From: an uncultured Verrucomicrobiales bacterium | Lineage (GTDB): Bacteria; Verrucomicrobiota; Verrucomicrobiia; JADLBR01 | Direction: 5' to 3' | Length of the DNA stretch: 64,000 nt | Assembly (NCBI GenBank): GCA_964651705.1 | Contig: CAZYWZ010000015.1 | Coordinates: forward strand, 9,617 to 73,616 | Shown: positions 6,976-40,935 of the stretch, one piece after another | Position numbering within the stretch: position 1 is the stretch's first letter | Layout of the letters: the number at the start of each line of letters is the position of its first letter | The notes under the pieces: generated by a model | Database searches by the model: none | What the model was told of the DNA's origin: nothing | The model's input: the letters and a program-made list of their open reading frames with translations, nothing else | Program-made: the position numbers and the translations under genes

Positions 6976-8646
6976 ATGCGACTCCCCGTTCTCTGCCTCT
7001 CTTTTCTCCCGGGCCTCGCCTCCCCCGCGGCGATCGAGCACACCTTCGACGGTTCTCGCCTGCCCTCCGAACAGCCGATCCCCTGGAGCCATCGCTCCAC
7101 CCCGGCCACCTCGGTGTCGGTCCAGAATGGAGCGCTCCGCATCGCCGACGACGGCACCAGGAACGGCGAACTCCAATTTATCTCGCGACACTGGTCCGCG
7201 GACCCGAATGCCGAGGCCCGCGTCGAGGCCGAGGTCCGGGTCCTGCGATGCAGCGGCGACGCCGGGGTCATCCTCCTCGTCGCCAATGGCGACCGCGAGG
7301 CCGCGCTGACCCTGTTCCCCGACCGCGTCTCCCTCCACCGCCTCGGCGCCACGGCACCAGCCCGCCTGGACGATACCTTCCACAGGATCGCTATGTCCCT
7401 GCGCGGGCGCGACCTCGTAGTCACCGTCGATGGGAAGACCCTCCTCGACCTGACGGGCAAGTGCGATTGGCCCGCCCACGAGGGGCGTAACCTCGTCGGC
7501 TTCGGCAGCATCAGCAGCGCCGCCACCGGCGAGGCGCTGTGGCTGTCCGTCCGCGCGATCACCACCCATCCCGACGCTGCCCCGTATCCGGACGCCGAAC
7601 ACATCACCGTATATCGCGAGCCGGGCGTCTACGCGTGCTTCCCCTCCTTGGGGACGACGCCCGAGGGCTGGTTGGCCACGCGATTTGGCACTCGGTCGCT
7701 CCGGAGCCACATCGACCCCACCGGGGGGTCCGCGGTCCGGATCTCCAAAGACGCCGGTCGCACCTGGCAGCCCGCTCCGGCCAGCACCCCGATAACCACC
7801 CCGGAGACCCTCCGCGCCGACGGCAATCACGCGATCGCCGGCGCGGTCGGCTGGCGCCACGTGCCCGAGACCGATCGCGCCGAATGGGAGGCCCGCGGCC
7901 TCGACGTCCGGCCCAGCATCAAGGGCAAGGTCGCCTACGCCAGCGGCGCCCACTTCTGCATCCGCGGACCCGACGGCAAATCAGAGGTCGTTCCCTGGAC
8001 GACGGTCCCGACCCCGCCCCACCGCATGATCATGGCCTACAATCAATCGGCCCGCCTCAACCTTGGCTCCGGCGCCCGCCTCGTCGCCATCTATGGGGAA
8101 ACCCCCGAGCGCCGCCGCGACGCCCTCGTGCTCCGCTCCACCGATGACGGCGATTCCTGGCAATGCCTCCCCATCGCGCGCGGCGAGGCCGACCTCGGCT
8201 TCAATGAGCCGGCGCTCGGCACCAACGCCGCCGGCCATGTCATCGCACTCATGCGCACCGCCGAGACACCGCGCGACCGCGGCTTCCTCTACCAATCCCT
8301 CTCCACCGACCGCGGCCAGACTTGGTCCCCGCCCAAGAACACCGGCATCTGGGGCTATCCCGCCCATATCCTCACACTCCCCGGCAACCGCGTGCTCGCC
8401 ACCTACGGCTACCGCCGCGCCCCCATGGGCATCCGCGCCACCCTCAGCCACGATGGCGGCCAGACCTGGCACACCAATGCCACCATCGTCCTCCGCGCCG
8501 ATGCCCAGGGCAATGGCAGCGACCTCGGATACCCCATCACCACGCGCCTCGACGATGGTGCCCTGCTCACCATCTATTACTTCAACGACGCATCGAATGT
8601 CACGCACGTCGCCACCACCCGATGGCGCCTGCCACGAACACCCTGA
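6976..8646 (+). CDS. BNR/Asp-box repeat glycosyl hydrolase (sialidase-like) with an N-terminal lectin-like domain
   Basis: Four Asp-box motifs of the S-x-D-x-G-x-T-W type (SKDAGRTW, STDDGDSW, STDRGQTW, SHDGGQTW) and a signal peptide. Confidence 0.75.
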   Translation: MRLPVLCLSFLPGLASPAAIEHTFDGSRLPSEQPIPWSHRSTPATSVSVQNGALRIADDGTRNGELQFISRHWSADPNAEARVEAEVRVLRCSGDAGVILLVANGDREAALTLFPDRVSLHRLGATAPARLDDTFHRIAMSLRGRDLVVTVDGKTLLDLTGKCDWPAHEGRNLVGFGSISSAATGEALWLSVRAITTHPDAAPYPDAEHITVYREPGVYACFPSLGTTPEGWLATRFGTRSLRSHIDPTGGSAVRISKDAGRTWQPAPASTPITTPETLRADGNHAIAGAVGWRHVPETDRAEWEARGLDVRPSIKGKVAYASGAHFCIRGPDGKSEVVPWTTVPTPPHRMIMAYNQSARLNLGSGARLVAIYGETPERRRDALVLRSTDDGDSWQCLPIARGEADLGFNEPALGTNAAGHVIALMRTAETPRDRGFLYQSLSTDRGQTWSPPKNTGIWGYPAHILTLPGNRVLATYGYRRAPMGIRATLSHDGGQTWHTNATIVLRADAQGNGSDLGYPITTRLDDGALLTIYYFNDASNVTHVATTRWRLPRTP

Positions 8647-8783
8647 CTCGAAAATCCCAGTAGCGAAGGGCCTTCGCCCTTTGGCGGCGGCTTCGCTACC
8701 ATTTTCTGCCCCGGCGGTGCCCTGCCGCGGCGCGCGTGGGACTCGAACTTCCCGGGTGTAGCCACGGTCGCCAGACCGTCGAT
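8644..8783. repeat. Mosaic GC-rich palindromic intergenic element, family 1, copy A
   Basis: Begins TGACTCGAAAAT exactly on the TGA stop codon of the sialidase-like gene. It contains the GTAGCGAAGGGCCTTCGCCCTT...GCTTCGCTAC hairpin module and shares modules with the copies at 13048, 18458 and 40759. Confidence 0.6.
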
Positions 8784-8795
8784 GTTCCAAAAAAC

Positions 8796-39880: not shown

Positions 39881-40675
39881 ATGCTCCAACTGACCATACT
39901 CGGTAGCGGCAGTTCCGGTAACTGTGCGCTGGTGGAATCGGCCGGCACCCGCCTCCTGGTCGACGCCGGCTTCAGCGCACGGCAGATCGCCCGGAGGTTG
40001 GCGACCGTTGGCCTGGATATCGCCGACATCCACGGGATCCTCCTCACCCACGAACACTCCGACCACACCGCCGGCCTCAAGGTCCTGTGCGGCTCCCTCC
40101 GCCTCCCCCTCTACTGCAATCGCCTCACCGCCGACTGCCTCCGGCACAACCTGCCCCACTTCGACGGATGGCGCCTCTTCAACACCGGAGACCGGCTCGC
40201 CATCGGCGACCTCGCGGTCGAAACCTTTTCCGTCCCCCATGACGCCAACGACCCCGTCGGCTTCGTCATCGAACACGCCGAGGCCCGCGTCGGTTTCCTC
40301 ACCGACATCGGCCACCCCACCGAATTGGCCATCGAGCGCGTCCGCCGCTGCCACGCGATCCTGCTCGAGGCCAACCACGACCTCGACCTCCTGCAAAACG
40401 ACACCCGCCGCCCCTGGCCCGTCAAACAGCGAATCCTCTCCCGCCACGGCCACCTCTCCAACGCTGGCGCCGCCGAATTGGTCCGCCGCGTCCTCCACGA
40501 CGACCTCTCGCACATCTTCCTCGGACACCTCAGCCCCGACTGCAACACGCCAGAACTCGCCCTGGCCACCATCGGCGCCGTCCTCGACGCCCTCGGCGCC
40601 CGCGACCGGATCCGCCTCCTCGCCGCCTGCCAAGACCGCCCCTCCGAGCGCGTCGCCATCGGACCGGCCCGCTAG
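39881..40675 (+). CDS. MBL-fold metallo-hydrolase
   Basis: HxHxDH motif (THEHSDHTAG) plus downstream His and Asp ligands. Confidence 0.8.
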   Translation: MLQLTILGSGSSGNCALVESAGTRLLVDAGFSARQIARRLATVGLDIADIHGILLTHEHSDHTAGLKVLCGSLRLPLYCNRLTADCLRHNLPHFDGWRLFNTGDRLAIGDLAVETFSVPHDANDPVGFVIEHAEARVGFLTDIGHPTELAIERVRRCHAILLEANHDLDLLQNDTRRPWPVKQRILSRHGHLSNAGAAELVRRVLHDDLSHIFLGHLSPDCNTPELALATIGAVLDALGARDRIRLLAACQDRPSERVAIGPAR

Positions 40676-40758
40676 CAGCCTGTTGAAAATCCGATATGGC
40701 GCCCGCATTGGGCACGGGAGGGACGCCGGCCCCGGCGTCCGCGTCCCACCAGATACCC

Positions 40759-40935
40759 CTCACTCGAAAATACGACGTAACTCCCTAGTAGCGAAGGGCC
40801 TTCGCCCTTCGCCGCGGGATAGGAAGCGGCTTCGCTACAATTTTCCGCCCCGGCTGTGCCCCGCCTGCGGGGCGCGGGATCTGACTGACTCGAAAATTGC
40901 AGACGTAGCCACGGCCGCCAGGCCGTGGACCCGCG
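40759..40935. repeat. Mosaic GC-rich palindromic element, family 1, copy D
   Basis: ACTCGAAAATACGACGTAACTCCCTAGTAGCGAAGGGCCTTCGCCCTTCG...GCTTCGCTAC, then GCCCCGCCTGCGGGGCGCGGGATCTGA, then CTGACTCGAAAATTGCAGACGTAGCCACGGCCGCCAGGCCGTGGACCC. Confidence 0.6.

Follow-up and report, generated by a model that had tools for sequence, protein, structure and literature searches.

GTAG-headed palindromic repeats form ordered composites in a Verrucomicrobiales genome and very probably belong to a RayT transposase system

The DNA analysed here, a stretch of 64,000 nucleotides (hereafter the window) from contig CAZYWZ010000015.1 of an uncultured Verrucomicrobiales bacterium, carries a family of short GC-rich palindromic elements in the spaces between its genes. 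A hairpin scan of the GTAG sites resolves nearly all of their modules into a single architecture, in which GTAG precedes a hairpin with an 8-bp stem and a 3-4-nt loop. Some 20-24 GTAG-headed units lie across nine intergenic regions; the well-formed ones all fall between genes, and no intragenic GTAG unit was seen within the 64-kb window. A conserved unpaired GTAG located 5' of a short palindrome is the textbook definition of a repetitive extragenic palindrome (REP) (PMC3733652, PMC8266576). An earlier note on this DNA could not place the family among the REPs or the bacterial interspersed mosaic elements (BIMEs) that are built from them. The GTAG head with its 8-bp stem and 3-4-nt loop, the inverted pairing of units, the conserved linkers and a linkage to RayT genes make it very probable that these elements are REPs, arranged in inverted doublets like those termed REPINs (REP doublets forming hairpins) and in BIME-like mosaics, of a Verrucomicrobiota system centred on RayT (REP-associated tyrosine transposase; TnpA_REP), a Y1 HUH transposase.

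The units sort by stem and loop into the following types.

R1: GTAG CGAAGGGC cttc GCCCTTCG, at 8660, 13073, 18486, 18571 and 40788, plus strand
R1', the inverted partner of R1: GTAG CGAAGCC[GC] cttc, at 13133 and 18553, minus strand; degenerate at 8699, 40838 and ~18630
R2: GTAG CCACGGCC gcca GGCCGTGG, at 8758, 18695 and 40905, plus strand
R3: GTAG CCCATC[CT]G gtca, at 1234 and 3152 (plus) and at 3242, 15303 and 18757 (minus)
tgc-loop pair: two units head to head, at 22598 (minus) and 22606 (plus)

Many of these units are chained into four composites, A to D, and others stand as doublets or alone.

8644-8783, plus: composite A, lying between a BNR-repeat gene and a PHO4 gene that converge on it. 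It opens with the leader TGACTCGAAAAT, whose TGA is the BNR stop, followed by R1 at 8660-8683 (GTAG CGAAGGGC cttc GCCCTTTG), an inverted partner that is truncated and runs to 8699, then a GC hairpin and a second leader (8739-8750), both degenerate, and lastly R2 at 8758-8781 (GTAG CCACGGTC gcca GACCGTCG).
13046-13178, plus: composite B, in the divergent intergenic region between a GH127 gene and a propeller-cytochrome c gene. A degenerate leader, GACCCGAAAAT, precedes R1 at 13073-13096, R1' at 13110-13133 (minus strand; GTAG CGAAGCCG cttc CGGCTTCG) and a GTGG-headed hairpin at 13149-13171; R2 is absent.
18458-18765, plus: composite C, in the tandem intergenic region between a P-type ATPase gene and carA, with the leader TGA as the ATPase stop. 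R1 at 18486-18509 and R1' at 18530-18553 (minus) are followed by a second R1 at 18571-18594 with a degenerate partner to ~18630, a GTGG hairpin at 18647-18669, R2 at 18695-18718 and an inverted R3 at 18734-18757 (minus strand; GTAG CCCATCCG gtca CGGATGGG).
40759-40932, plus: composite D, in the tandem intergenic region between an MBL-fold gene and a TonB gene. The leader TCACTCGAAAAT, its TGA mutated, lies 84 nt past the stop of the upstream gene; R1 at 40788-40811, a degenerate partner to 40838, a variant GC hairpin at 40856-40875, a second leader TGACTGACTCGAAAATT at 40883-40898 and R2 at 40905-40928 (GTAG CCACGGCC gcca GGCCGTGG) follow.
3133-3245, plus: REPIN-like R3 doublet, tail to tail, filling a convergent intergenic region. 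The leader TGACTTGAGAATT, whose TGA is the stop of a PALP-enzyme gene, precedes R3 at 3152-3175 (plus) and R3 at 3219-3242 (minus), the latter 14 nt from the stop of a minus-strand gene.
1234-1257, plus: single R3 unit, GTAG CCCATCTG gtca CAGATGGG.
15280-15303, minus: single R3 unit, GTAG CCCATCCG gtca CGGGTGGG, also present in contig L015 of a 94%-identical strain.
22576-22628, both strands: head-to-head GTAG pair with 3-nt loops, GTAG GCCGCCTG tgc CAGGCGGC (minus) and GTAG GGCGTCTC tgc GAGACGCC (plus), the heads linked by ACAAAATCT, within a block of ~150 bp.
24168-24249: degenerate GTAG units of the CCGCGAGC gtga type, in which 4-6 of the 8 positions pair, located where GFO_IDH and IMS diverge; their membership is weak.

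The four composites with their shared ordered modules are thus present where the earlier note had placed them, with copy C better extended to ~18765 so as to take in a further inverted unit. Their occurrence in convergent and divergent intergenic regions alike, which that note had pointed out, is borne out and extends to tandem regions. As in BIMEs, the order leader, R1, R1', linker, GTGG hairpin, second leader and R2 recurs in copies A, C and D, and copy B keeps it without R2; contig L007 from the relatives shows the composite order too, with linkers between units that are 72-93% identical. As in REPINs, R1 and R1' form inverted doublets at 13073-13133, 18486-18553 and 18571-18630, and the R3 doublet at 3152-3242 and the head-to-head pair at 22576-22628 are organized in the same way. 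The leader, previously described as the first shared module, has its exact form at 8644, 18458 and 40886, with degenerate versions at 13044 and 40759; its core GACTCGAAAAT is exact at 8645, 18459 and 40887 and carries one mismatch at 13046 and 40761. The second module, originally read as one long imperfect hairpin, does stand twice in tandem in copy C, but consists of two inverted GTAG-headed 8-bp hairpins that fold independently. The stem of the third (GTGCCCCGC-GT-GCGGGGCAC, preceded by GTGG) has exact copies in B and C, a variant in D and a degenerate form in A, and may be a GTGG-headed variant unit, because GTGG heads are reported in Opitutus terrae (PMC3733652). The fourth, a second leader joined to a CCACGG hairpin, is found in A, C and D and is absent from B. 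The 20-mer GTAGCGAAGGGCCTTCGCCC occurs five times, on the plus strand throughout, and has no match in 100 dinucleotide-preserving shuffles, and a repeat search of the window independently finds the shared blocks at 65-100% identity (families D1-D3, D19 and D20).

The association between the GTAG head and the hairpin is quantitatively strong and is not a selection artefact. Of the 48 perfect hairpins in the window with 8-bp stems and 3-4-nt loops, 12 are headed by GTAG, a tetranucleotide that occupies only 0.14% of positions. When every GTAG is counted irrespective of pairing, at least 7 of the 8 possible pairs follow it at 15 of 46 sites outside an approximate gene list, compared with 0 of 128 in coding sequence. 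Covariation of the stems, which had been named beforehand as a test of the structural argument, is likewise clear: in an alignment of 18 units picked by head and sequence family, two degenerate ones included, 85.7% of cells pair, a level that none of 500 shuffles attains (pairing after shuffling is 54%), both sides change in seven of the eight stem pairs, and sliding the partner by 1-3 columns lowers pairing to 31-51%. The paired substitutions noticed earlier between copies A and D in the CCACGG hairpin (CCACGGTC/GACCGT versus CCACGGCC/GGCCGTGG) are real. DNA folding of the R1/R1' doublet favours two separate 8-bp hairpins (z = -3.5), and the element folds are more stable than shuffles (z = -2.9 to -3.5).

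The linkage to RayT emerges from other genomes. A search with the R1 24-mer in one genome per species gives matches in at least seven stretches on five contigs of four metagenome-assembled genomes (MAGs); among the matches listed all of the MAGs belong to the Verrucomicrobiota (Oceaniferula, Akkermansiaceae and two assigned to 'Verrucomicrobiia'), and two of the stretches, L005 and L007, share the composite order with the window. On contig JBFERY010000005.1 of the Oceaniferula MAG, the exact R1 24-mer and its inverted partner stand on each side of an open reading frame (ORF) of 189 aa. This ORF spans L006 and L001, consecutive blocks of one contig, and an identical annotated protein (P0001) on a 73,910-bp contig confirms the join. 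The tblastn match in L001 that adjoins R1 is 44% identical to Rhodopirellula baltica RB11751 (rba11751), with an E value of 2.6e-36. The 189-aa protein contains the HUH motif PDHAH (CLMPDHAH) and a catalytic Y...NP, and its sole match in NCBIfam is NF047646, 'REP-associated tyrosine transposase'. The family profile matches one PDB entry only, 4ER8, the E. coli TnpA_REP, and the JGI annotation of several homologues reads 'REP element-mobilizing transposase RayT'.

The wider RayT clade of the Planctomycetes-Verrucomicrobia-Chlamydiae (PVC) superphylum reproduces this arrangement. RayT homologues that were looked up (L009-L014) carry GTAG CGGAAC.. or CGGAAG.. hairpins on both sides in four of five distinct cases, a count in which the downstream unit of L011-L013 and of L014 appears only under looser stem settings, L014 has one unit type on both sides, and the head of the second downstream unit of L009 was not picked up. 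Scanning metagenomes with the family alignment produced 80 loci; at 61 of them RayT has GTAG hairpins on either side within 300 bp, and hairpin density is 7.3 per kb near RayT versus 0.27 per kb in the remainder of the loci. The units near these metagenomic RayTs have stems of 8 bp (217) or 9 bp (107) and loops of 4 nt (248) or 3 nt (70), which is the architecture of the window units, and CGAAG-initial stems recur beside RayT genes. No conserved A-rich leader was found in the wider RayT clade, the general feature upstream of GTAG being one pyrimidine only (C 57%, T 27%), and since an A-tract is present in only 24 of 354 clade units, the GAAAAT leader is specific to the window lineage. In 13 of 84 RayT genes of the PVC clade, translation ends at the TAG contained in the GTAG of the unit just downstream (L009:5555, L010:3192, L011:5630, L029, L065 and others); TAG terminates 40 of the 84, more than any other stop codon.

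Three further observations were made. The R1 24-mer is unchanged in L001-L004 and L006 (Oceaniferula and Akkermansiaceae MAGs of 59-61% GC) relative to the window at 67% GC, and its inverted partner and linkers differ between those MAGs and the window; strong co-conservation with RayT or horizontal transfer are both possible sources of this constancy across differing GC content. In P0065, a partial RayT homologue from a Verrucomicrobiota MAG, the peptide GRPKGVST occurs at both protein ends, which suggests that the gene call includes translated REP units from both gene flanks. The CCGC.../gtga stem class to which the units at 24168-24249 belong also flanks several metagenomic RayT genes (e.g., L028 and L055).

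By analogy with E. coli, Stenotrophomonas and Marinomonas, GTAG would serve as a 'guide' tetranucleotide and each unit would fold as a hairpin of single-stranded DNA. RayT, if it behaves as do the characterised systems, would bind the unit, cut at a nearby dinucleotide and rejoin the DNA, so that units or groups of units would be copied to new intergenic sites. Unit types (R1 with CGAAGGGC/cttc, R2 with CCACGGCC/gcca, R3 with CCCATCYG/gtca, the GTGG GC hairpin and the tgc-loop pair) would accumulate side by side, and the composite with its linkers would subsequently be copied as a block. Copies would land at or beside the stop of the upstream gene, with the leader TGA acting as the stop, would be transcribed as 3' ends and may also act as RNA hairpins.

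Several points weigh against this assignment. A tblastn search of the 64-kb window with six published RAYT/TIRYT sequences (those printed in the supplement of PMC3733652) finds no RayT gene, and the organism would have to encode a RayT of its own. The PVC RayT clade scores under the NF047646 equivalog cut-off (43-75 versus 80 bits) and under the curated cut-off of Pfam Y1_Tnp (20.3 versus 23 bits). The RayT flanked by exact R1 units belongs to a different lineage of lower GC content (59% versus 67%), and R2, R3 and tgc-loop units were not found beside RayT in the fetched loci. To our knowledge, moreover, transposition of REPs by RayT in vivo has never been shown in any organism. In vitro cleavage and strand transfer by RayT have been described (PMC8266576).

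Comparison with relatives indicates that the elements come and go. Those relatives of the ATPase that lie on long contigs keep the gene order DsbD, ATPase, carA, FHA, kinase, GFO_IDH, IMS. The gap between ATPase and carA measures ~400 bp in the window (18461-18861); it is 77 bp between the ATPase stop and carA in L016 (MAG GCA_026646655.1, 75% aa identity), and in L017 the two genes overlap. The ~300-bp composite C is missing from both, and the alignment with the relatives resumes past composite C, in the block upstream of carA (CAAATTCTTGTTGAG...). The block at 22570-22715 (~150 bp), which holds the tgc-loop pair, is also missing from the orthologous sites of L016 and L017. Composite C and this block are thus lineage-specific insertions, and the comparison of orthologous loci that the earlier note had called for reveals presence/absence polymorphism, with no target-site duplication visible at the one site compared, ATPase-carA against the empty site in L016. 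The strain represented by L015, from run SRR8490538, is 93.8% identical over 15279-18467 (the DsbD and ATPase genes) and has the R3 unit at 15279 in common with the window. It diverges 7 nt past the ATPase stop, where it carries a different head-to-head GTAG pair (GTAG TGCCGCC ttca GGCGGCA), a replacement compared at one site (L015:3277-3455 versus window 18461-18765). Together, the empty sites in L016 and L017 and the differing units of L015 show that units are gained, lost or replaced over short evolutionary times. Public relatives of the window ATPase are found at 95% identity (a 3.5-kb Logan contig) and 75%, then at 72%, 66% and 65%, down to ~55%; the window organism is poorly sampled in public data. 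DNA identical to window 41861-48256 is present in run SRR14787580.

Explanations that dispense with RayT account for part of these results. The earlier note had allowed for an RNA motif, and a structured RNA element (a 3'-UTR stabiliser, small RNA or cis-regulator) spread by duplication or recombination without a transposase would suit the position of four of the five leader-bearing elements, which lie directly 3' of plus-strand genes in the same orientation, as well as the covariation of the stems, in which one G-T pair of copy A would be G-U on the transcribed strand, and the stability of the folds relative to shuffles (z = -2.9 to -3.5). REPs of E. coli, moreover, stabilise mRNA. This effect is discussed in PMC3733652, and by analogy a role of the present units as 3'-end hairpins is plausible. 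As a primary cause, however, RNA function leaves the unpaired invariant GTAG head and the tight association with RayT unexplained, and it fits poorly with a copy (B) that lies between divergent genes, with units on both strands and with a 94%-identical strain that has different unit types at one site. No Rfam 15 model reaches its gathering threshold anywhere in the window, and relaxing the cut-off to E <= 1 over 1-50000 brings up no match within the elements. We therefore regard the RNA explanation, which has no specific support and is not needed, as very improbable in that primary sense, while an RNA role and mobility may well coexist.

Less probable still, and hardly to be expected, is that the elements are Rho-independent, partly bidirectional terminators that resemble one another through convergent constraints, a GC hairpin being set between an A-tract and a T-tract (GAAAAT ... 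ATTTTC). The upstream GAAAAT leader and the ATTTT(T)C after the R1 doublet do give the succession A-tract, hairpin, T-tract, and a consensus scan flags the R3 unit at 3176-3155 (minus) and part of copy A (8682-8698). Most units nevertheless have no T-run, copy B is downstream of no gene, and of the terminator-like matches in three 20-kb scans (17, 11 and 17, against ~9.5-9.8 expected) two fall in composites; nor can convergence produce identical 24-mers, conserved linkers and GTAG heads. A conventional miniature inverted-repeat transposable element, derived by deletion from a DDE-type insertion sequence and mobilised through terminal inverted repeats, would likewise be short, non-coding, multi-copy and intergenic, with inverted repeats. 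Here, though, the ends of the composites are mutually unrelated (the leader TGACTCGAAAAT at one, an R2 or R3 hairpin at the other), the internal inverted arms are each headed by GTAG, the sole insertion with an empty-site comparison has no target-site duplication, and RayT is the only transposase gene seen beside the units, such that this origin too has very little to recommend it.

Returning to the REP-RayT assignment, the relation of the elements to stop codons merits closer examination. The leader TGA is the in-frame stop of both genes for which the coincidence had been claimed, the sialidase-like BNR-repeat gene (6940-8646, stop at 8644-8646) and the P-type ATPase gene (16055-18460, stop at 18458-18460), both of which are supported by Pfam. 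A third case is the PALP-enzyme gene (2158-3135), which stops at the leader TGA of the R3 doublet (3133-3135, TGACTTGAGAAT). All three of the gene-abutting leaders that retain TGACT supply the stop, the fourth such leader (40886) being internal to composite D, and leaders away from gene ends lack the TGA (GGA at 13044, TCA at 40759). The proteins are neither shortened nor lengthened: in the L016 ATPase and in the three closest BNR orthologues the last residue falls where it does in the window. Because element-free orthologues stop with TAG (L016), TAA (L098) or TAG (L099), it is suggestive, although not proof, that the TGA arrives with the element; L015, which has the leader-like TGACCTGAAACT, ends its ATPase with TGA. 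Random placement in intergenic regions of 100-400 bp cannot account for exact coincidence at three independent sites, which points to target choice or strong filtering. A possible fourth case, in L007 (TTGAAATACGG), was left uncounted, as its upstream ORF is short and has a third-position GC content (GC3) of 0.56.

A CT dinucleotide beside the REP is the cut site of characterised RayTs (PMC8266576), and by analogy the CT that follows TGA in TGA-CT-CGAAAAT could be a RayT cut site. One may then ask whether the composite is more than a passive cluster of REPs, with a leader ([T/G]GACTCGAAAAT) that supplies an opal codon and goes in exactly where the upstream genes natively stop. We consider this extension unlikely: a single-strand transposase of the RayT type would then have to direct insertion to stop codons, possibly through cleavage and joining at the CT of TGA-CT, and the composite, rather than the REP or REPIN, would be the mobile unit. 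The coincidence of leader and stop, together with the element-free orthologues, offers a concrete and testable handle on target choice. In a separate observation, the LeuA-like gene ends in TGACCTGAAAC (window 48158-48170), which is close to the TGACCTGAAACT found at the L015 ATPase stop (L015:3274-3286); the two may be forms of another leader that also carries a TGA and goes with repeats of other types.

The kind of element described here is already known. More than 80 species, among them the verrucomicrobium O. terrae and the planctomycete R. baltica, are reported to carry GTAG REPs, with several families side by side, dimers in inverted orientation and RAYT genes flanked by REPs; in O. terrae GTAG REPs accompany the RAYT Oter_2468, and REP termini that supply stop codons are described as well (PMC3733652). 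Our literature search found no paper beyond that one linking Verrucomicrobia with REPIN or RAYT. The GTAG REPs of these two organisms (families GTAG-17 to -22, Di Nocera et al. 2013, PMC3733652; RAYTs Oter_2468 and RB11751), with which the window organism has the phylum or superphylum in common, resemble the present units in their GTAG or sometimes GTGG head with a 6-9-bp stem, in the number of families per genome, which is several, in their inverted dimers and in termini that can supply stop codons. They differ in that the window units are chained in a fixed order behind a conserved A-rich leader and that the stop supplied is the leader TGA, not the TAG of GTAG. The O. terrae units further have other stem and loop sequences, a comparison made only via the REP-encoded peptides in PMC3733652 (VAGVADPG, VGPALAAG and GTGVPPV), which they encode inside genes.

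The REPs and BIMEs of E. coli, with their Y1 HUH transposase TnpA_REP (RayT, YafM; 4ER8), share with the window elements a GTAG and hairpin, alternating orientation, conserved linkers, mosaic structure and an extragenic location mostly at gene 3' ends. E. coli BIMEs bind IHF and gyrase. The E. coli REP stems are imperfect, with a required bulge (PMC8266576), whereas those of the window are perfect 8-bp palindromes that resemble the 'group 3' REPs of Stenotrophomonas and Marinomonas, and the RayT proteins are only distantly related. As in the REPINs of Pseudomonas fluorescens (Bertels and Rainey 2011, PMC3116915), an inverted REP pair with a short spacer is the repeated unit and is linked to RayT, which in that system is single-copy and itself flanked by such units; the block in the present case is larger (R1 doublet, GTGG hairpin and R2), mixes unit types and belongs to another phylum. 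The new details are therefore the stem sequences, the set order of units in the composites and the leader with its TGA. The earlier description of the family as previously unnoticed may hold for these stem sequences, but does not hold for the kind of element (PMC3733652).

The basic picture of REPs is unchanged by these findings. Work on REP-RayT systems has so far dealt almost exclusively with Gammaproteobacteria. The PVC clade, now documented with perfect 8-9-bp stems, is an independent case for examining how RayTs select the sites at which they cleave and insert. More practically, the repeats define true gene 3' ends, interrupt assemblies built from short reads (the ends of contigs L008 and L015 lie in or beside repeats) and create spurious ORF extensions. 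The last of these is illustrated by a 1141-aa ORF, the N-terminus of which had been ascribed to translation of the reverse strand of copy B. Copy B covers residues ~254-302 of this ORF, N-terminal to the GH127 domain (from residue 369), GC3 across it drops in both overlapping frames (0.54-0.66 versus ~0.85), and on either side of it, at ~12963 (minus) and ~13262 (plus), there are starts followed by signal peptides that plausibly are the true ones. The GC3 drop and the flanking signal-peptide starts therefore mark the N-terminus of the 1141-aa ORF as spurious.

Two further features of the window stand apart from the REPs. GC skew is negative in all 2-kb windows of 1-64000 (-0.07 to -0.30), an unusually strong and uniform C excess on the plus strand that places the entire window on one replichore. 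A replication-related strand bias of the units was considered and set aside: R1 and R2 heads all lie on the C-rich plus strand, but the inverted R1 partners, the mixed R3 orientation and the single skew sign allow no conclusion. A second, unrelated repeat (TTTGGAGTGCGGCGTTGGAGCGCCGCTTTGGATT...) occurs at 15150-15219 and 48227-48296, 84% identical over 70 nt, with a partial inverted copy at 48476-48503. Each of its copies lies less than 70 nt past the stop of a plus-strand gene, its hairpin (GCGGCG-N6-CGCCGC, then TTTGGATT) is among the best terminator-like matches, and the Logan contig L008 ends within it.

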